A DNA stretch of 64,000 bases. Origin: an uncultured Clostridia bacterium. Its GTDB lineage: Bacteria > Bacillota > Clostridia > TANB77 > CAG-508. The notes beneath the pieces are model-generated. The model was not told the origin of the DNA and made no database searches. It saw nothing but the letters and a program-made list of their open reading frames with translations. The DNA is taken from assembly GCA_934167965.1 (NCBI GenBank), contig CAKPMJ010000002.1, positions 90,907 to 154,906 of the forward strand, written 5' to 3'. Of the stretch, positions 2,444 to 57,987 are shown one piece after another. Each line of letters opens with the position of its first letter. The stretch's first letter is position 1. A program made the translations under genes and the position numbers.

Positions 2444-3853
2444 TTAATCTATTATTCTTCTTGCTGTAATATAAGTTTTTTTGTAATAGCTATTTGATAA
2501 AGATGTTATTATAATTCCTTTTTTAGGATTTGCAGCATGTATGAAATTATTTCCCCCTATATATATTCCTACATGTCCTGAAAAACATACAAGATCCCCT
2601 GCTTTCAAGTTTGCTTTTTTCACTTCTTTACCATTACTTCTTTGCCCACCTGATGTTCTACTTAAAGAATATCCAAAATGTTTATATACATATGATGTAA
2701 ATCCTGAACAGTCAAATGTATCAGGTCCTGCAGTTCCATATACATATTTATGTCCTAAATATTTTTTTGCATATTCTACAACTTTTGCACCTGTAACACT
2801 ATTGTTGTCTTCTTTCTTACTTTCAGTTTTATTTTTAATTTTACTCTCTTTCTTTTCTTCTTTTTTGTTTTCAGCTTTTGCGTCTTTTTCTTCCTTTTTT
2901 TCTTCTTTTTGATCTTTTGGTTCTATTTCCGGAGTTCTATCATTCTCTAGGCTTCTTGATGATACTTCTTCTACCTTTTTGTTTGATAAATATTCAGTTG
3001 ATATATATCCTGTAAGATTTCCAATTTTTACTTTACTCCATGTATTGTCTACTTTTTCTATTACTGTAACTTCTGTATTTCTTAATAATTGATCCATTAT
3101 TTCAGAAGTTGTATTTGCTTCTCTTCTTAAATTAACTGTCTTAGAACTTATATACATTTTTTTAGTTTGTGTTGTTTTGCTTTCTTCTTTTTTAGTTTCT
3201 TCCTTTTTTTCCTCTTTCTTAGTTTCTGTTTTCTCCTCTTTCTTTTCTTCTGTTTTTGGTTCTGCTTCTGGTTCATTATTTGCAATATTATTTTCTAAGT
3301 TAGTTTTTATCACCCAACCACTTTGCTTATCTGATTCTACATAGCACCAGTTTCCTAATATTTCAGAGATTGTTACATCACTATTTTTAGATATATTTTC
3401 TACTTTGCTTGAGTTAATTAGTGGTAATATTCTTATCTCTATTTTTCTTGATACTTTTATTGTGTTTCCTTCTTTTATTTCAACCTTTTGAGAAGTGTTA
3501 TCCACATTTTCTTCTACTTTTGTTGATTTTTCTACTGTTTCCTCTTTTTTTTCTTCTGTTTTAGTTTCTTCTTTTTTGGCTACTGATAATAAATCGTTTC
3601 TAATATATCCTTCATACTCTAATCCATTTGACTTGTATTTTACTTTATACCATTCTCCTTCTTCTCCAAGTATCTCTACTTTTTTATTTTTAGATATAGA
3701 TACTACTGTTTCTGAACTTGTTGATGCCTTCTGTCTTATTCTTGTTGAATCATTTTTTGTTTTTCCTTCAGTAGCAGCATATACTTGTGTATTTATTAAT
3801 ATTAATCCTATGTAAATTATTACTGATATTATTATCAATTTTATTTTTTTCAT
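2444..3853 (-). CDS. Secreted NlpC/P60 (C40) cell-wall peptidase with SH3b-like repeats and a Glu/Lys-rich linker
   Basis: N-terminal signal peptide; C-terminus reads ...GHKYVYGTAGPDTFDCSGFTSYVYKHFGYSL...GDLVCFSGHVGIYIGGNNFIHAANPKKG (Cys-His catalytic core of NlpC/P60). Confidence 0.8.
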   Translation of the reverse strand: MKKIKLIIISVIIYIGLILINTQVYAATEGKTKNDSTRIRQKASTSSETVVSISKNKKVEILGEEGEWYKVKYKSNGLEYEGYIRNDLLSVAKKEETKTEEKKEETVEKSTKVEENVDNTSQKVEIKEGNTIKVSRKIEIRILPLINSSKVENISKNSDVTISEILGNWCYVESDKQSGWVIKTNLENNIANNEPEAEPKTEEKKEEKTETKKEEKKEETKKEESKTTQTKKMYISSKTVNLRREANTTSEIMDQLLRNTEVTVIEKVDNTWSKVKIGNLTGYISTEYLSNKKVEEVSSRSLENDRTPEIEPKDQKEEKKEEKDAKAENKKEEKKESKIKNKTESKKEDNNSVTGAKVVEYAKKYLGHKYVYGTAGPDTFDCSGFTSYVYKHFGYSLSRTSGGQRSNGKEVKKANLKAGDLVCFSGHVGIYIGGNNFIHAANPKKGIIITSLSNSYYKKTYITARRIID

Positions 3854-3980
3854 AATCTACTCCTATTATATTTTTTAATAGTATTAGTATATACTTTTTA
3901 ACAAAAATTGTCAATGTTTTTTGAAACAAAAATATAATAAACACTACATAGCTATTTAAAGCATCTGTAGTGTTTTTATA

Positions 3981-4793
3981 TTATGCACTCTTAAGTTCTA
4001 ATCTTAGCTTATCAGCAATCATAGCAATGAACTCGCTATTTGTAGGCTTACCCTTTGCTGCTGATACTGTATAACCAAATATATTCTCCATTATAGTTGG
4101 TTCTCCTCTGCCCCAAGCAACTTCTATTGCATGGCGAATTGCACGTTCTACTCTTGATGGAGTAGTGCTAAATTTTTGAGCAATTTGTGGATATAAACTT
4201 TTAGTAATCTGATTTATTACATCAATATCATTTATAACCATAATTATAGCTTCTCTTAAGTACTGATATCCTTTTATATGTGCTGGTACACCAACTTCAT
4301 GAATCATGTTGGTAACCAAGGCTTCTAAATTCTCGTTTCCTTTCATGTTATTTATTTCTATGTATGATCTTTGAGTTGTTTCCCTTGAAATGAAATTATT
4401 ATTAGGCATTGGTCTAAAGTTTTTAATTTCTCTAATTCTCCTAATTAATAATTCAATGTCAAAAGGTTTTACTACATAGTATTCTGCTCCTAACGCAATT
4501 GCTTTTTGCGTTATTTTGTCTTGACCGACTGCTGATAACATAATGCAAATTGGCTTTTTTATTACATTACTATTATTGATTCTTTCTAAAACTCCTAGTC
4601 CATCTAAATGTGGCATTATTACATCTAATATTGCTACATCTGGTGATAATTCTTTCACTTTTTCTACAGCTTCTACTCCATCTTTTACCATTCCTACAAT
4701 TTCCATATCCTCTTCATTTTCTAGATATGTTGCAAGAGTTCTACTAAACTCTTCATTGTCATCTGCAATTAATACCGTAATTTTCTCTTTCAC
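3981..4793 (-). CDS. spo0A: Stage 0 sporulation protein A (Spo0A)
   Basis: Receiver domain (LIADDN...D56-like) plus the Spo0A-specific C-terminal domain: [14 protein letters not shown]...[19 protein letters not shown]...[17 protein letters not shown]. Confidence 0.95.
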
Positions 4794-4924
4794 AGTTTTA
4801 TCCTCCTATAAAATATTTGTAAAAATAATTGGAAATTTTTTACAATTTTAATTATAGTATATTATTTTATAAAATGCAATAGTTTTTTGGAATTTTTTTC
4901 CATTTATTATCAAAATTACATATA

Positions 4925-4960
4925 AAAAAACCTTACAGCGTTAATACTGTAAGATTTTAA
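4925..4960 (-). terminator. Rho-independent terminator downstream of clpX
   Basis: Hairpin CTTACAG-N-CTGTAAG followed by a T-run on the minus strand. Confidence 0.5.
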
Positions 4961-4976
4961 ATATTATTAATATTAT

Positions 4977-6302
4977 CTATGCTGTTTCCTTTTTTTGTTT
5001 TGGCTTTACTTTGTTAATCTTTTTTGTATTGTCTTTTTGAACTCGAGTTCCATCAATAACTACTTCCGGTTTAGAATTATTTAAAACTGTGTCTTTATTT
5101 ACTGTACATTTTGCTATTTGTCGATTTGATGGTATTTCAAACATAATGTCAGTCATTATTTCTTCTATAATAGAGCGAAGTCCTCTTGCTCCTGTATTAC
5201 GCTCTATTGCCTTACCAACTATTGCATCTATAGCATCATCAGTAAATTCAAGTTCTACATTATCAAATTCAAATAATTTTTTATATTGTTTAATCAAAGA
5301 ATTTTTAGGTTCAACTAAGATTCTTGCTAATGCTTCTCTATCTAGCTCTTTAAGTGTTCCTATTATAGGAAGTCTTCCTATAAATTCTGGAATTAAACCA
5401 AATTTTAATAAATCTTGTGGTAATAATTGTTCAAATATTTCATATTTTCCAATATCTTTTTTGCTTTCTATCTCTGCAGTAAATCCTATTGTCTTTTTAC
5501 CTGTTCTATCTCTTATAATGTTCTCTAATCCTTCAAATGCCCCACCACAGATAAATAATATATTTTCTGTGTTTATTTGAAGCATTTCTTGATGAGGATG
5601 TTTTCTTCCTCCTTGTGGTGGTACTGAAGCAACTGTTCCTTCTATTATTTTAAGTAATGCTTGTTGTACCCCTTCTCCACTAACATCTCTTGTTATTGAT
5701 GGATTTTCTGATTTTCTTGTTATTTTATCAATTTCATCTATATATACTATTCCTTTTTCTGCTTTTGATATATCTCCATCAGCTGCTTGAATAAGTTTTA
5801 GAAGTATGTTTTCTACATCTTCTCCTACATATCCTGCCTCTGTTAAAGTTGTAGCATCTGCTATTGCAAATGGTACATTTAATATCTTAGCTAAAGTGCT
5901 TGCTAATAGTGTTTTTCCACAACCAGTTGGTCCTAACAATAATATATTACTTTTATGGATTTCAACATCATCTTTTTCTTTTGATTTTTCTTCATGACTT
6001 ATTCTTTTATAATGATTATACACTGCAACAGACAATATTTTCTTTGCCTTTTCTTGCCCTATTACATAATCATCTAATATCTTTTTTATTTCTTCAGGAC
6101 TTGGAATTTTTTGCTCTTGTTGTTCATCATAATCTTCATCATAATACTCATCTATTCCGTCATTTTCTAATATCCCTTGACACAAATTTATACATTCATT
6201 ACAAATATATACTCCTGGTCCTGCAATTATCTTTTTTACACTTTCTTGTGGTAAACCACAGAAAGAACATCTTACATTTTTAGGTTCATTACTCTTTGCC
6301 AT
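4977..6302 (-). CDS. clpX: ATP-dependent Clp protease ATP-binding subunit ClpX (Lys-rich C-terminal tail)
   Basis: N-terminal C4 zinc-binding motif (CSFCG...CNEC), Walker [15 protein letters not shown], and the ClpX IGF-loop region. Confidence 0.95.
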
Positions 6303-24734: not shown

Positions 24735-25601
24735 TCAAAATATCATATTTCCCTTATCTCTTATCTTCATTCTGTATTCATTTATTTTATATCCACAAAA
24801 ATTTACTCCTTGTTTTCCTTTAAATATTTGTGTTTTTTTATTTAATTCTAACTGTAATTTTTCTTTTAAAAATTTTGTTATTTGCTCTAGTGCATTTTTT
24901 GCCTCCTGTTTTGTTTCTACAATTAATACACTGTCATCTAAATACCTCGCATAATATTTTATATGTAATTTATGTTTTACAAATTGGTCTATTTCATTTA
25001 AATAAATATTTCCAAACATTTGAGATGTATAATTTCCTATTTCTAATCCTTTTTTTCTGGACTGTGAATATAATATTTCTTTTATAAGCCATATTATTTT
25101 TTTGTCTTTTATTTTTCTTTCTATTATTTCTAATAATATTTTTTTATTTATATTATCGAAATATTTGGCTACATCCATTTTTAATATATAATAATTTTTC
25201 CATTTATTTTTTGCTTTTTTCATACATGATTGTACATACAATGCTGCTCTATGCATTCCCCTTCCTTTTAAACAAGCATAAGAATTACTTATAAACGTTG
25301 GTACAAATGCTGGTTCTAAAAAGTTATCTACTAACCATCTATGTACTATTCTGTCTATATACCTAGATTTTTCTATTTTTCTTATTTTAGGTTCTGTTAC
25401 ATAAAATACTGTATATCCTCCATGTTTATATGTCATATCTTTTAATTTTTTATATAAATACATTATATATTCTTCTTGTTTTAAATAAAAATTTATATTT
25501 TCTATTCTATATCCTTTTCCCTTTTTAGATTTTATGTGTGCATCCATTAATTTTTCATAACTTAATTTTTTGTCATATTCATTTCTTATTGTCTTTGGCA
25601 T
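24735..25601 (-). CDS. Diversity-generating retroelement (DGR) reverse transcriptase
   Basis: RVT_1 domain with YARYLDD (YxDD) and the DGR-specific motif-4 variant LEIGNYTSQMFGNIYLNEID (IGxxxSQ instead of QGxxxSP). No maturase or endonuclease domain; N-terminus ...EPKIRKI...DRIVHRWL is typical of bRT-like RTs. Confidence 0.8.
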   Translation of the reverse strand: MPKTIRNEYDKKLSYEKLMDAHIKSKKGKGYRIENINFYLKQEEYIMYLYKKLKDMTYKHGGYTVFYVTEPKIRKIEKSRYIDRIVHRWLVDNFLEPAFVPTFISNSYACLKGRGMHRAALYVQSCMKKAKNKWKNYYILKMDVAKYFDNINKKILLEIIERKIKDKKIIWLIKEILYSQSRKKGLEIGNYTSQMFGNIYLNEIDQFVKHKLHIKYYARYLDDSVLIVETKQEAKNALEQITKFLKEKLQLELNKKTQIFKGKQGVNFCGYKINEYRMKIRDKGNMIF

Positions 25602-25962
25602 AATATTTTAATAATCCCCCTATTATTTTTCCTATTTCATATATCTGTTCTATTGCAATATTAAATTTTTTATTATCTATCCATCTGTTTTTATACATTA
25701 TTCTTAAAAATATTCGTTGAGTATTAAGCTCTGCATCTATTGCATTTATTATATTTAGACAATCTTTTGTTTCTTGTATTTTGCTTATATATAATACATC
25801 TTTTATCATTTTGTACATACTTGTTTTATATTCTGTCCCTATACTGAACTTTTCTATTCTTGGTATTTTTATTATTAAATTAATCATATATTCTACGTAT
25901 TTTTCTGTTTTAGGTATTAATATTAATTTATTTTCTTTTTCCTTATTCAATCTATTCACCAA
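25579..25962 (-). CDS. Avd-like accessory variability determinant (four-helix-bundle protein, PF05635-like)
   Basis: 127-aa basic helical protein overlapping the RT start by 23 nt. It resembles the four-helix-bundle/23S-IVS protein family (…AELNTQ…EIGKIIGGLLKYY). Confidence 0.65.
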   Translation of the reverse strand: MVNRLNKEKENKLILIPKTEKYVEYMINLIIKIPRIEKFSIGTEYKTSMYKMIKDVLYISKIQETKDCLNIINAIDAELNTQRIFLRIMYKNRWIDNKKFNIAIEQIYEIGKIIGGLLKYYAKDNKK

Positions 25963-26161
25963 CTTCTATCTCTAAATATCTTTCTAATGCAATTTCATAA
26001 TTCGTTTTTTCTTTGTGAATATTTTTAAGACATTCACTACATTTTTTATTTAATAATACCGCATCTTCTCCTATTGCAATATAAAATGCACCACATGATA
26101 CTAATATTATTTCATTTATATATATTTCTTTTAGTTTTAATATCATTTCATAAAAATTCAT
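25952..26161 (-). CDS. Small hypothetical ORF (69 aa) between the DGR target and avd
   Basis: ORF only; overlaps the avd start; function unknown. Confidence 0.3.
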   Translation of the reverse strand: MNFYEMILKLKEIYINEIILVSCGAFYIAIGEDAVLLNKKCSECLKNIHKEKTNYEIALERYLEIEVGE

Positions 26162-26288
26162 CTTTTATCATTCCTTTCTTTCTAAAAAAGGTGATATGCT
26201 ATTTTTTTGAACAAAAAAATAGCACACCACGCTAGTGGTGCACCACGCTAATTGCATTCGCTAATTATTATTAGCTTCTAATTTCCTA

Positions 26289-26373
26289 TATTTTCATAGC
26301 AATAGCCTTTTCTAGGTTATCGCTTTTAGAGTTCAGACCTACTTTATATAAAGTGTGAGGCGAGTAGAATAGT
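26289..26373 (-). repeat. Conserved post-VR element (IMH-like GC-rich block CTCGCCTCACAC, stop codon, 3' UTR), copy 1. The other copy, with one mismatch, is at 55861..55945.
   Basis: Direct comparison of the two loci. Confidence 0.7.
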
Positions 26374-39420: not shown

Positions 39421-40110
39421 TTAATTATTTTCTTGTATTTTATATTGGCTAATATCAGGCTCTACAAATATACTATCATCTACATTGTCAAATTCATAAT
39501 AATATTCTGCAACTATTGCTTCTTCTGTTCCATCTTCTTTTACCGAGTATCCATTATTTGCTTTTAATGTAAGACCTGTTTGCTTTTGTATATATGCATT
39601 ATCTGCTATTAATGATTGAACAAAGTAACACTCTTTTCCTTCATATTTTACAGTTTTTATTTTACTCATAGCAGCTAATTTAAATAAACTCCATAAATTA
39701 TTCTCATAATCAAATCCCATAATCATAATTTGAGATTGTACTTCATCCTTATTAGCACCTAGCATCGCTATTTTAGAATCTTCAACATCTATATAAGTAT
39801 TTACTGTGTCTCCTTTGGTATATTGCATTAACTTTCTATTTTTACCTGTGTCTTTTTCTTTTAAAGTATATATCATCAAAGCATTCTCATCTTTTAAATA
39901 AAACTCTGTCATACCTCCAGAATTATTTACAATTTTTTCATAATGATTATTACTATTTATGTACTTTGAAACTTTATTGTTTAAATCTCTAATTATAATC
40001 ATCTTCCTAATTGTTATTGCTAAAAAAATAATTATCGCAATTAATATAAATAATAAAATAATTTTCAATACTTTCTTTTTATTCATATAAATTCCTCCTT
40101 TTCTAAGCAA
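39421..40110 (-). CDS. Hypothetical membrane-anchored protein
   Basis: N-terminal TM; no recognisable domain. Confidence 0.5.
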   Translation of the reverse strand: MLRKGGIYMNKKKVLKIILLFILIAIIIFLAITIRKMIIIRDLNNKVSKYINSNNHYEKIVNNSGGMTEFYLKDENALMIYTLKEKDTGKNRKLMQYTKGDTVNTYIDVEDSKIAMLGANKDEVQSQIMIMGFDYENNLWSLFKLAAMSKIKTVKYEGKECYFVQSLIADNAYIQKQTGLTLKANNGYSVKEDGTEEAIVAEYYYEFDNVDDSIFVEPDISQYKIQENN

Positions 40111-40298
40111 CCTTGCAATTCTGAGCTATTATATAATCTTTAGACCATTGGCTTTTCGTCATAAACTTTCATTTACTTTGCTTTTTAACCTATTTCTATT
40201 ATACCATATTTTAGCTTTTTTTTGCAAATGAGAACTTTTCTATAATAAAAAAAGTGAATTTCTGTTAATACAGTTTTTCACTTTTTTCTTAATTTACT

Positions 40299-45563: not shown

Positions 45564-45613
45564 TAATACTATTTTGTGTTTTAATTGTCAATATTTTATT
45601 TGAATTTTTTTAA

Positions 45614-45642
45614 GTTGTCAAAAAGGAACGTCCCCATTGACA
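45614..45642. repeat. 29-nt palindromic motif, copy A: TTGTCAAAAAGGAACGTCCCCATTGACAA
   Basis: 7-nt inverted arms TTGTCAA/TTGACAA around a 15-nt asymmetric core. Other copies at 57180..57208 and 49616..49682; degenerate copy at ~50829..50851. Confidence 0.7.
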
Positions 45643-45861
45643 ATAAGTTTGTATCTCACCAATCCCTTTTTCTATGTATTGCCTAACTTCATTATTTTCA
45701 ATATTCATTTTTTTGTAAGCATCAAATATCAAATTATATATTTCTTGTTTTGACTTATTTTTAAATTTCTCATATATATTTTGTACATCATTCAAATCTA
45801 ATTTTAATTCTAAATAATCTCTACCTGCTAATATACATCCTATTGCCTGTACTAAAACAAT

Positions 45862-49617: not shown

Positions 49618-49682
49618 GAGTGTCAAATGGGACGTTCCTTAATGACAATATATTGTCATTAAGGAACGTCCCATTTGACACT
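49616..49682. repeat. Perfect 67-nt palindrome made of two inverted copies of the 29-nt motif (GAGTGTCAAATGGGACGTTCCTTAATGACAATAT|ATATTGTCATTAAGGAACGTCCCATTTGACACTC)
   Basis: Read directly from the sequence; lies between convergent genes and may also act as a bidirectional terminator. Confidence 0.8.
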
Positions 49683-49690
49683 CTCTAACA

Positions 49691-50443
49691 TTAAATTCTA
49701 GTAGCCATAAGTATCTTTAATATTTTCTCCTTTGGGGTAAACACTTTATATTTAATAAAGTATTTCTGAATTGGATTGAAAAATGTATCTAATAACAAAA
49801 TATCTTTTATCCTAAATTTCACTCCTTTTCTTTCTAAATAGTCACATGTAAATAATTTACATCCTATACATTTAGCATCACATGTATAATTTTCCTTATT
49901 TAAATACTCACACAATACTAATTTTGTTAATGGTCCTAAACATTTTATTCTAAAATGGTGACAACATCCAGTTAATGATTTGGCATTTCTTTTTTCTCCA
50001 CATTTATTATTTTGAAAATCACACAGATTTTTTCCATAAAAGTGGCTGTCTAAATAGTTGCATACTGTATCATAAATATAATTGTATCTATTGTAACACT
50101 TATCATAAAAAATTGCATTTATACCATTAATAAAGTCTTTATGAAATATGTTGTTTTCATCATAATTTAATACATAGCCTATTATTATTTTATTATCTTC
50201 TTCTACACCTATCTTCACTTTTTGATGTAAAATCTTTGTTTTTACTTTAAGTAGTTTTCTTAACAACTTTTTATATTCTTTTTCATTAAATGTTCTAAAA
50301 TTTATTCTCAGTGTAAGTACACTTTTATTTTTTATTTCATTTGTACTAAAATTTATGATATCTATACTTCTTTCTTTGTTTTTTTCTTTATTATCCATAA
50401 TCTTCAAGTAATATTCATTATCTAGTTCTATATATTTTTCCAT
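49691..50443 (-). CDS. Hypothetical protein with a Cys-rich C-terminal half (CCHH..C..C..CxxC)
   Basis: ORF; no recognisable family; possible metal-binding protein. Confidence 0.45.
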   Translation of the reverse strand: MEKYIELDNEYYLKIMDNKEKNKERSIDIINFSTNEIKNKSVLTLRINFRTFNEKEYKKLLRKLLKVKTKILHQKVKIGVEEDNKIIIGYVLNYDENNIFHKDFINGINAIFYDKCYNRYNYIYDTVCNYLDSHFYGKNLCDFQNNKCGEKRNAKSLTGCCHHFRIKCLGPLTKLVLCEYLNKENYTCDAKCIGCKLFTCDYLERKGVKFRIKDILLLDTFFNPIQKYFIKYKVFTPKEKILKILMATRI

Positions 50444-55657: not shown

Positions 55658-55910
55658 ATTTTTTTTCCTCCTAGTATTTGTTCTTGCTTATTATATCATT
55701 TAGTTTTTTGTATTTCAAGTATTTTGTTAATAAATACTCCTGTATATATTTTTTTCATACTAATCTTGGTAAGCCTTTATTAACAAAAAAATTAGCCAAA
55801 ATCCTTAAATTTACTTTAAGAATTATTTGACTAATTTTTCCTTCTTTTATTAATTTTCTATATTTTCATAACAATAGCCTTTTCTAGGTTATCGCTTTTA
55901 GAGTTCAGAC

Positions 55911-57149
55911 CTACTTTATATAAAGTGTGAGGCGAGTAGAATAGTCGCTGCTAGTAAGGTACGGATGGTTGTTGGGGCGATTGCTAGGTGAAAAGCTAAG
56001 GCTGAAATAACCACCTCTGAGAGCACGACGGCTAGTGTAGTTCGCCTCTAATGTCCATTCATAACTATTTCCTAGTAAATCATATATATTGTTTAATTTA
56101 TCTGTTGAGACTGTTCCTGTTTTTCGTGTTGTATTTCTACTTGTTGTTACTCCTTCTAAATTTGTTGGAGTTTTTGATGTTACGTCTATTCCATTTTCTT
56201 GCATCCATATCATCATTTGATCATATTGACTTCCCCATATCATACTACTTCCTACTACATTTTTTATTTTATCTTGCCCACTATATTCTTTATCTTTTTG
56301 ATATAATCCATACCATGTATTTGCACTACTTGTTTCTGCTGTTGCCGATGCTACGCCAGATATTGATTGAGCATTTTTTGTTTCTGTGTTTAAACTTGTT
56401 TCATATCTTCCTACATAGAATCCTTTATTTTTTTCTACATATTTTATCATTTCATCAAATTCGTTTTGTAATTGTGTTTTCCATTTCGTTAGTATCTCTT
56501 CATCTGTTCCATTTAAACCTACTATACTTTTCAATAAAGCTATTCCTTTTGCATCATCCCCTGTTATTGCATCTCCATATGCTGTACTTGATAAATAGTC
56601 TGGCTCTCTGTAGTCTGTTGCACCTGTCCATTTCATAACTCCTGATGTCTCTGTCCAACTATTCGCTCTATATCCACTTGAAGTAAAGTTATAAAGTTTT
56701 CCTAGTTTCTTTTCTTCTGCATTTGTTCCATACATTTTACTTACATCTTTTACTGGCACCCATACAAATTCACTATTATCTGGTGCTACTACTACTATTC
56801 CTTTTTTTACTTCTGTCGGTGAATCTTCTTTTATTTTAAATCCTACTGGCACTACTATAGTTTCTCCATTGTCATCTTGTAATTTTACTTTTCTTCCTTC
56901 TATAACTTTATTTTTATTGTCTTTTACCTTTCCTAAGTTTCCTGTACTTTCTTCCATTAAAATTTCTAAATCTGTTAAGTCTTCTGTTTCATTTGTTTGT
57001 GCTTCTTCTGTTTTCATTTTAGCATCTGCAGCCTTCTTTAATATTCCATTTTCTCCTGATAGCATTGCTATTGCGACTCCTGCTAATATCAATAACACTA
57101 TTATTGTTATTACTAGTGCTATTAATGTTATTCCATTGTTTTTCTTCAT
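55911..57149 (-). CDS. DGR target protein 2 (paralog of 26339..27589) with a distinct C-terminal variable region
   Basis: Same pilin-like N-terminus (NGITLIALVITIIVLLILAGVAIAMLSGENGIL) and FGE/CLec domain. The C-terminal ~45 aa differ (…EANYTSRRALRGGYFSLSFSPSNRPNNHPYLTSSDYSTRLTLYIK). Confidence 0.8.
   Translation of the reverse strand: MKKNNGITLIALVITIIVLLILAGVAIAMLSGENGILKKAADAKMKTEEAQTNETEDLTDLEILMEESTGNLGKVKDNKNKVIEGRKVKLQDDNGETIVVPVGFKIKEDSPTEVKKGIVVVAPDNSEFVWVPVKDVSKMYGTNAEEKKLGKLYNFTSSGYRANSWTETSGVMKWTGATDYREPDYLSSTAYGDAITGDDAKGIALLKSIVGLNGTDEEILTKWKTQLQNEFDEMIKYVEKNKGFYVGRYETSLNTETKNAQSISGVASATAETSSANTWYGLYQKDKEYSGQDKIKNVVGSSMIWGSQYDQMMIWMQENGIDVTSKTPTNLEGVTTSRNTTRKTGTVSTDKLNNIYDLLGNSYEWTLEANYTSRRALRGGYFSLSFSPSNRPNNHPYLTSSDYSTRLTLYIK
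55946..56080 (-). other. DGR variable region VR2
   Basis: See VR1; mismatches are confined to this block. Confidence 0.75.
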
Positions 57150-57179
57150 ATTATTTCTTCCTTTCTTTATTTTTTATTA

Positions 57180-57208
57180 TTGTCAAAAATGAACGTCCCC
57201 ATTGACAA
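57180..57208. repeat. 29-nt palindromic motif, copy B (TTGTCAAAAATGAACGTCCCCATTGACAA), 30 nt upstream of the target-2 start codon
   Basis: 27/29 identical to copy A. Confidence 0.7.
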
Positions 57209-57324
57209 CTTTAATGCACCATAAAAAGACAATATAAACTTATCCAGTATCATAATACTTACCAGATAAGCCAATATTGCCTTTTTCACTATATATCTTA
57301 TTATTTATTTTTACTAAACTAATT

Positions 57325-57344
57325 GTGTGTGTGTGTGTGTGTGT
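57325..57344. repeat. (GT)10 dinucleotide microsatellite
   Basis: Read directly: GTGTGTGTGTGTGTGTGTGT, ~175 nt upstream of DGR target 2, between divergent genes. Confidence 0.9.
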
Positions 57345-57645
57345 ACAGCCTCAACGGTTCTAGCTTTTTTCATCTTTTACACCAACTTTCTACTTTATTC
57401 TTTTTATATTTTACTAAAACATCATTTTCTTGTAAATACTTTTTGCCAATTTATTTAAAAATTTGTATAATTTATAGTACACTAAAATTATAACTAACAT
57501 TAATTAATAAAATTCTGCAAAAATGTTTCAAAATTTTTCCAATAAATACATCTATAAATTATTGCAATTTCAATGATTTTGTAATATAATAGTTCTATAT
57601 AAATTTCATAAAATCATTATAAATTTTTTAGGAGGATGAAATTAT

Positions 57646-57987
57646 ATGTGTTGTCACAACAAACATTCAATTACAATTTTAAAAACACCATATGGTTATC
57701 TGACTAATACTGGCTTTACAGAAAATATCAATTCCCGGGATATTGTTGCTGTTTGGAGTAACAATTTAAAAGGCAAAAATAAAAAAAGACAGCTAAGATA
57801 TTTTTTTAAGCACTGTTTTCTTTCATCAAAAATAAAACAAGTATTAGAACAGGCTTGCCTTGATGAATGCATTATATGGGCGTTCGAATGTCCATATGCC
57901 AATTCCTGTTACTCTTGTTACAATTCTAAATATTGTAACTTCTGGAATGGCAATCGTGACAAACTTGAATTTACAAAATTAAATTAA
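57646..57987 (+). CDS. Small Cys-rich hypothetical protein (113 aa, 12 Cys)
   Basis: RBS AGGAGG 8 nt upstream; terminator directly downstream. Confidence 0.55.
   Translation: MCCHNKHSITILKTPYGYLTNTGFTENINSRDIVAVWSNNLKGKNKKRQLRYFFKHCFLSSKIKQVLEQACLDECIIWAFECPYANSCYSCYNSKYCNFWNGNRDKLEFTKLN

Follow-up and report, generated by a model that had tools for sequence, protein, structure and literature searches.

The question raised by this locus is what a perfect dinucleotide repeat is doing between two divergent genes, and which of these genes, if either, its length might control. The window (the whole 64-kb stretch of DNA that was analysed) is chromosomal DNA of a bacterium, with a GC content of approximately 27%. 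The original prediction for this site was that a perfect (GT)10 tract lies about 175 nt upstream of a gene termed DGR target 2 and about 300 nt upstream of a divergent Cys-rich gene, and that changes in repeat number could switch target 2 by altering promoter spacing or DNA topology. The position of the tract and both distances were borne out, as detailed below. The mechanism that emerged probably differs from the spacing and topology idea and is more specific, comprising the reading frame of a short leader and a terminator. The tract is likely to be the hypermutable element of a phase-variable transcription attenuator that would operate by translation-dependent antitermination.

Position, rarity and length of the repeat tract

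The tract and its immediate neighbours are as follows.

57325 to 57344, minus strand: hypermutable tract (AC)10, equivalent to (GT)10 on the plus strand, encoding the His-Thr repeats of the leader.
55911 to 57149, minus strand: target 2, the putative controlled gene, 412 aa, with a pilin-like N-terminal helix and a variable C-terminal block at approximately 55951-56062.
57562 to 57590, plus strand: promoter-like site (TTGCAA-17-TATAAT) proximal to the divergent Cys-rich gene, located beyond the tract and not part of the switch.

Read on the plus strand, the region around the tract is actaaactaatT(GT)10Acagcctcaacggttctagc, with (GT)10 at exactly 57325-57344; the (TG)10T register of the same tract occupies 57324-57344. 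From the tract it is 175 nt to the start codon of target 2 (412 aa; 55911-57149, minus strand) and 302 nt to the ATG of the 113-aa Cys-rich ORF (57646-57987, plus strand). The tract is the sole dinucleotide repeat of at least seven units in the 64-kb window, the runner-up being (AT)6, and the observed number of GTGTGTGTGT matches was reached in 0 of 100 dinucleotide-preserving shuffles. The tract was thus confirmed and is not a product of chance.

For the comparison of tract lengths, contigs were collected by searching for exact matches to target 2, to the Cys-rich protein and to two close variants of the latter. The contigs of the species complex are L001-L010, L087-L088 and L114-L127, and the relatives of the window all come from human-gut metagenomes. 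Alleles were counted on metagenome contigs with near-identical flanks, giving 18 non-redundant complete tracts including that of the window. Two contigs each have n = 7, n = 8 and n = 9, ten have n = 10, and one each has n = 16 and n = 19. Seven further contigs of the species complex break off within the tract.

The variation is confined to the repeat to a marked degree. In an 838-nt alignment of related contigs the tract is the sole indel, accompanied by three SNPs. One haplotype with identical flanks is present with n = 8, 9 and 10, and an identical 412-aa protein is encoded on contigs with n = 10 or n = 7. Such tracts had been expected to be prone to slippage, and the comparison across related metagenome contigs was positive, with lengths of 7 to 19 units; an invariant length, which would have spoken against the original prediction, is therefore not what these genomes have. 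Together these data support the tract as a hypermutable contingency repeat. The contigs broken within it (the seven above, plus five of eight in the sister species described below) suggest that its length is also heterogeneous within samples.

Leader, hairpin and proposed switch

The elements between the tract and target 2, and those upstream of the tract on the same strand, are listed in the order in which they would be transcribed.

57408 to 57436, minus strand: sigma-70-like promoter, TTTACA-17-TAAAAT, 10 of 12 matches, approximately 35 nt upstream of the leader ATG.
57380 to 57383, minus strand: weak Shine-Dalgarno sequence, GGTG, 6 nt before the leader ATG.
57314 to 57373, minus strand: leader ORF at n = 10, MKKARTVEAVHTHTHTQLV followed by a stop, 19 aa; the stop ends 11 nt past the tract.
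57345 to 57363, minus strand: box CTAGAACCGTTGAGGCTGT, directly 5' of the tract, codons A-R-T-V-E-A-V; this served as a search handle.
57240 to 57313, minus strand: leader extension, ending ...ISLVKINNKIYSEKGNIGLSGKYYDTG and a stop, open to the ribosome at n = 0 mod 3 alone (for example 9 or 12).
57223 to 57286, minus strand: intrinsic-terminator-like hairpin, comprising an A-tract, a 26-bp interrupted stem and a T-run (GUCUUUUU).
57169 to 57208, unstranded: D8 motif TTGTCAATGGGGACGTTCATTTTTGACAA, dispersed, between the hairpin and the target 2 ribosome-binding site.

The minus-strand order is leader, hairpin, D8, ribosome-binding site and target 2. At n = 10 the leader reads MKKARTVEAV(HT)3QLV and then stops, starting from an ATG at 57373-57371. 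The position of the leader stop depends on n. At n = 7 or 10 it lies 11 nt beyond the tract, and at n = 8 or 11 it lies 6 nt beyond. At n = 9 or 12 the frame remains open for 27 more codons and closes at a TAA (57242-57240) that sits in the 3' arm of the hairpin. The stops of the three frames end 6, 11 and 85 nt past the tract, and the hairpin occupies positions 39-102 past it (core 43-98). All three frames are closed at or before 57240, 91 nt short of the target ATG at 57149; because all of them stop before the target gene, any effect of the tract on this gene must be indirect.

The hairpin at 57223-57286 has a predicted folding energy of -26.9 kcal/mol (z -5.49), and none of 200 shuffled sequences folded equally well. 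It is AU-rich, and a simple terminator scan made no call there because of its 10-nt loop and few G-C pairs. No known RNA family was found for the leader in Rfam, searched with the whole window at the gathering threshold, with 57050-57650 at E ≤ 10 and with six related loci. An alternative antiterminator pairing was not identified at the leader.

From this arrangement we infer the transcription start, translation of the leader, the function of the terminator and the direction of the switch, as follows. The promoter at approximately 57436-57408 (minus strand) would start an mRNA whose first ORF is the short leader (ATG 57373) containing (AC)n. Slipped-strand mispairing would alter n and shift the leader reading frame. 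In two of the frames the ribosome would stop 6 or 11 nt past the tract, about 28-33 nt before the hairpin base; this early release would allow the hairpin to form, and most transcripts would end before the pilin-like gene (OFF or low). With n a multiple of 3, the ribosome would read to the stop inside the hairpin, folding would be prevented, and RNA polymerase would continue into target 2 (ON). The window state (n = 10) and most assembled states are predicted to be OFF, and only n = 9 (2 of 18 contigs) is predicted to be ON. ON/OFF control of a pilin-like DGR-target paralog, as first suggested for this tract, is the most likely role, here predicted from frame geometry.

Lengths of the n = 1 mod 3 class (7, 10, 16, 19) are found in 14 of the 18 species-complex contigs. 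The ON/OFF model, in which n = 2 mod 3 is OFF to the same degree, leaves this excess unexplained; the excess hints at an extra layer of selection on the leader frame. The weak Shine-Dalgarno sequence of the window (GGTG) counts against the switch model; the leader Shine-Dalgarno at other loci is AGGAG or GGAGG. A further point against it is that coupling between transcription and translation may be poor in Firmicutes, and antitermination by ribosomes could be weakened accordingly.

Recurrence of the layout in other loci

In a sister species (Cys-rich ortholog 63% identical), the leader has (AG)10 at the orthologous site, reading (CT)10 on the plus strand. The tract is followed by the same hairpin, and five of the eight contigs end in the tract. 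The leader C-terminus, GNIGLSGxYYDTG followed by a stop, is conserved in this species in the n = 0 mod 3 frame only; the loci that keep it are L012, L110 and L089. The exact right flank was found at one locus in JGI metagenomes, in an unrelated genomic context, where it lies inside a small ORF ending at a hairpin and T-run.

GTDB genomes were scanned with the pattern ACAGCCNCAANNGTTCTAG. This gave 62 matches, mostly plain chance matches in unrelated phyla, and the window's own species was not among them. In 14 of the 62 the box abuts (GT)8-19 or (AT)9, and all 14 lie in MAGs of uncultured Clostridia (human, rabbit, rumen). Copies of box plus tract occur several per genome, with up to four in one. 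An upstream ATG lies a few codons before the box in each complete (AC)n or (AG)n copy; a -10-like element and a ribosome-binding site accompany it in the copies sampled. The (AT)9 copy (L081) has no upstream ATG, and L033 is cut at the box. A scan of viral contigs for tract plus box gave zero matches; within that collection there is no sign of a phage-borne element.

The stop layout recurs with the repeat. In 14 (AC)n or (AG)n loci with a hairpin, early stops are present in two frames, mostly 6-36 nt past the tract; in L030 they lie at 51 and 62 nt. The stop of the n = 0 mod 3 frame, which runs on for 40-133 nt, falls within the hairpin and T-run, or else 8 nt short of it or 14 nt past it. A strong hairpin and T-run was found at the end of the long frame in 13 of 15 loci with sequence beyond the tract, the exceptions being L032 and L081. 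Most loci with downstream sequence have a pilin-like gene 110-160 nt past the tract. The downstream gene has a strong ribosome-binding site 40-70 nt further on and, in most loci, a gene start reading ...GITLIALVITIIVLLILAG...

This layout recurs in at least nine sequence-dissimilar groups of uncultured gut Clostridia. Eight groups besides that of the window have hairpins, and the hairpin sequences are wholly different between groups. Using composition-matched shuffling, the joint probability that the n = 0 mod 3 frame is open to within 12 nt of the hairpin in nine groups was approximately 8e-8, a figure that overstates independence because the loci share ancestry near the tract.

A box-free search was also carried out, starting from homologs of the target 2 protein. 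It recovered a third chromosomal context (L110-112), with a leader containing (AC)14 or (AC)10, and a fourth (L089, homolog P0038), with (AC)3A10 at the tract position. With its homopolymer A10, L089 has the same hairpin and the same layout with one long frame. The repeat leader was absent in three other groups of target 2 homologs in this search. Box counterparts found without the pattern read AKSLVRV in L110, AENLAGV in L089 and PRIVEAV in L114 (a close strain). The box is thus only loosely to moderately conserved, and its invariance in the genome scan is an ascertainment effect because the search pattern fixed it.

The box, as ARTxxAV, was separately considered as a functional peptide or RNA element; this was dropped, the copies found without the pattern being divergent.

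In L078 (Lapin-012__bin16), tandem genes at 4827-6047 and 3186-4433 (both minus strand) each follow their own (AC)n, with n = 11 and n = 10, respectively. The first gene is a pilin-like paralog, an identity read for that gene only. Such an arrangement would allow the neighbours to switch independently.

Alternative explanations

The same frame geometry would also fit frame-dependent control by another route, namely mRNA stabilisation by ribosomes, Rho-type polarity or translational coupling instead of terminator melting. L032 also speaks for this: its long frame fuses to the pilin ORF and no clear terminator is present, and the family may therefore include classical intragenic switches. In 13 of 15 loci, however, a strong hairpin and T-run are placed exactly at the long-frame end, and the genes beyond are equipped with strong ribosome-binding sites of their own, another 40-70 nt downstream. 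Control by these routes is considered unlikely.

Similarly improbable is a reading in which the tract phase-varies a small protein with its own function, the hairpin just ends the small gene, and target 2 is expressed independently. It draws on the N-terminal motif (A/S)RT(L/V/I)xAV, which is present in many copies. The recurrence of this motif is nevertheless largely ascertainment, as the pattern-free copies (AKSLVRV, AENLAGV, PRIVEAV) differ from it, and the tails of the long frame are unrelated between groups. In L082 (12/12 consensus), L110 and L046 the only same-strand promoter-like site is upstream of the leader, with none between hairpin and gene.

The promoter reading, in which tract length alters the geometry of one or both divergent promoters through spacing, topology or Z-DNA, did not hold up and is now regarded as very improbable. 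The tract does lie in a divergent intergenic region, and (GT)n is able to form Z-DNA. In the scan for promoter-like sites, however, no -35/-10 pair brackets 57325-57344; a second plus-strand site at 57443-57471 lies, like that at 57562-57590, on the Cys-rich gene side of the tract. The Cys-rich gene also keeps its promoter where the module is missing. Target 2, its leader and the leader promoter (approximately 55740-57540, a 1.8-kb module) are absent in L020 and L021, where the Cys-rich protein is 96% identical and a DnaB-like gene abuts the retained Cys-rich promoter; the module is therefore an insertion/deletion polymorphism. Many homologous leaders lie outside divergent regions, and (AG)n or poly-A takes the same spot in homologous loci. 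Z-DNA potential is not conserved because neither of these is an alternating purine-pyrimidine sequence. What is conserved is instead hypermutability together with reading frame.

A neutral microsatellite with no regulatory role is hardly credible, given hypermutable tracts of differing sequence at the same codon position in many loci, a stop codon layout conserved in all three frames, and the frame bias among observed lengths.

Comparison with known systems

The attenuator reading has a close analog in Streptococcus gallolyticus. There, GCAGA repeats in the leader ORF of pil1 and pil3 set the distance between leader stop and terminator, a stop at least 28 nt before the terminator giving low expression and a stop within or beside it giving high expression, a logic that was proven experimentally (Danne et al. 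2014, PMC3894217). As in pil1/pil3, the repeat here is inside a leader ORF with an upstream promoter-like site and Shine-Dalgarno sequence, and a stem-loop terminator, here predicted, lies between the leader and surface-appendage genes. Frame sets the leader stop either far from the hairpin or in or beside it, here in nine groups; short leaders ending about 28 nt or more upstream would spare the terminator, and long ones with their end in or beside the hairpin would eliminate it. Repeat number varies between populations in both systems (here n = 7-19, and 14 versus 10 in L110-112), and the majority state is low or OFF, for the present locus by prediction.

The two systems share no sequence homology and are analogs, not homologs. 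The repeat unit here is a dinucleotide (AC, AG, AT) or poly-A and not GCAGA. Two frames are short here and only n = 0 mod 3 is long, whereas pil1 has a short reference frame and acquires long leaders by out-of-frame changes. The genes downstream here encode type IV pilin-like, DGR-style variable proteins of the FGE-sulfatase/C-type-lectin type, and those of pil1/pil3 encode sortase-assembled pili. The hosts also differ: the switch in uncultured gut Clostridia, promoter-like site and Shine-Dalgarno sequence included, is known from sequence, and that of S. gallolyticus from experiment.

Amino-acid-sensing leader-peptide attenuation is established for the trp and his operons (summarised in PMC3894217). 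The likeness is that the position of a ribosome on a leader ORF decides the fate of a terminator, and that codons (His and Thr here) are repeated. The signal here would be the frame, which is genetic, unlike tRNA charging, and (AG)n (Glu-Arg) or (AT)n (Tyr-Ile) stands in for His-Thr in homologous loci.

Two further classes of repeat-driven switch were compared. In Helicobacter pylori, outer-membrane protein genes undergo intragenic phase variation through CT repeats in the 5' part of their coding sequence. The window resembles these genes in having a dinucleotide repeat close to the start of a reading frame, with an ON logic of one frame in three; unlike them, the window has its repeat in a separate leader ORF, and in-frame fusion was seen only in L032. 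In promoter-spacer SSR switches (TA repeats of Haemophilus hif, Neisseria opc and porA, Mycoplasma vlp) an intergenic repeat likewise lies upstream of a surface-protein gene. The window tract differs in being downstream of the candidate promoter and inside an ORF, and not between -35 and -10.

Literature searches returned no further repeat-in-leader attenuator besides that of S. gallolyticus, and none in Clostridia or beside DGR-type targets. Whether the loci described here constitute an undescribed, multi-copy family of repeat-in-leader attenuators in uncultured spore-forming gut Clostridia is put at an even chance. Every copy in such a family would act on its own as the gate of a single pilin-like, DGR-type hypervariable surface protein, tandem paralogs would be switched separately, and the repeat would have arisen anew at the same codon on several occasions (as AC, AG, AT or poly-A). 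If so, these cells would combine stochastic ON/OFF choice, DGR-style diversification and cassette-like allele replacement.

As the S. gallolyticus switch is the single experimentally studied case of phase variation by leader repeat and terminator in the literature searched, an independent, non-homologous, multi-copy family in human and animal gut Clostridia would, if confirmed, mark this arrangement as a general solution and not a curiosity. A switch placed before a DGR-diversified fold suggests two stacked layers, one governing whether the protein is made and the other which variant is made. Surface variation in two layers bears on how gut commensals escape phages or immunity. The value of n mod 3 would also provide a simple sequence rule by which ON and OFF states could be read straight from metagenomes.

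Target 2, the DGR and the surrounding region

The N-terminus of target 2 scored 21.1 bits against PF07963 (gathering cutoff 21.2), with Ala and not Glu at position +5. One homolog was named a GspH-family protein by its source, and another (L065) carries an FGE-sulfatase domain (PF03781), the usual fold of DGR variable proteins. Target 2 itself has no above-threshold domain in Pfam or NCBIfam, and a relative of solved structure was also not found.

Target 2 is a paralog of target 1, a 416-aa gene adjoining the reverse transcriptase (RT) and bAvd. RT (RVT_1, PF00078) and bAvd (PF22296) are located at 24735-25962, 30 kb from target 2. Differences between the variable repeats (VRs) of targets 1 and 2, VR1 and VR2, are concentrated in approximately 112 nt near the 3' end, at codon positions 1-2 and in the manner of AAC codons, and both are followed by an identical 60-nt 3' flank. 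A template repeat matching VR1 or VR2 was not found in the 64 kb by blastn, local alignment or an adenine-tolerant scan; it may be placed outside the window, or the DGR may be defunct. The designation of the gene as a DGR target is therefore only partly verified: VR-type variation relative to target 1 and the presence of RT and bAvd 30 kb away agree with it, and the missing template repeat in the window does not.

The RT of the cassette beside target 1 (24735-26340) is only 288 aa in length.

At the locus orthologous to 55911-57149, L001 and L004 have the leader and the first 37 residues unchanged. Beyond them comes a different body of 466 aa, which has a VR-like end of its own; the 3' flank after it is again nearly identical. 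This pattern is cassette-like allele replacement at the locus.

A gene for a SigK-like sporulation sigma factor adjoins the locus. The 113-aa Cys-rich protein, which is always encoded beside the SigK-like gene, has just three cluster-level homologs among 5.8 billion proteins. The Cys-rich ORFs at 57646-57987 (plus strand) and 49691-50443 (minus strand) gave no Pfam match, and the first was also without an NCBIfam match. A c-di-GMP-I riboswitch was identified at 40103-40191 (minus strand), scoring 45.1 bits (gathering score 35); the gene downstream of it encodes a membrane-anchored protein of approximately 221 aa with no assigned function.

D8 motif and other structured segments

D8 is a dispersed 29-nt motif, TTGTCAATGGGGACGTTC(A/C)TTTTTGACAA, which also occurs in L012, L110 and L090-L093. 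One copy in the window (45604-45643) precedes a short gene for a GntR (YtrA-like) regulator, 45 nt upstream of its promoter. Another site (49630-49695) comprises two inverted copies forming a perfect 33-bp palindrome, with convergent genes on either side. In a homolog without the repeat leader, D8 directly follows the promoter -10. D8 may be an operator or RNA element for the pilin-like gene family, and its location between hairpin and gene may add a separate, second layer of control. Pairing between the box and D8 was considered and rejected, with only 4 bp found by eye.

A second conserved structured segment, without an Rfam match, lies between the leader terminator and the downstream operon in L077 (1550-1720) and L011 (1-110). 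It is a long inverted repeat, CTTAAGTCTATGT...ACATAGACT(A/T)AAG, with GGGG/CCCC flanks.
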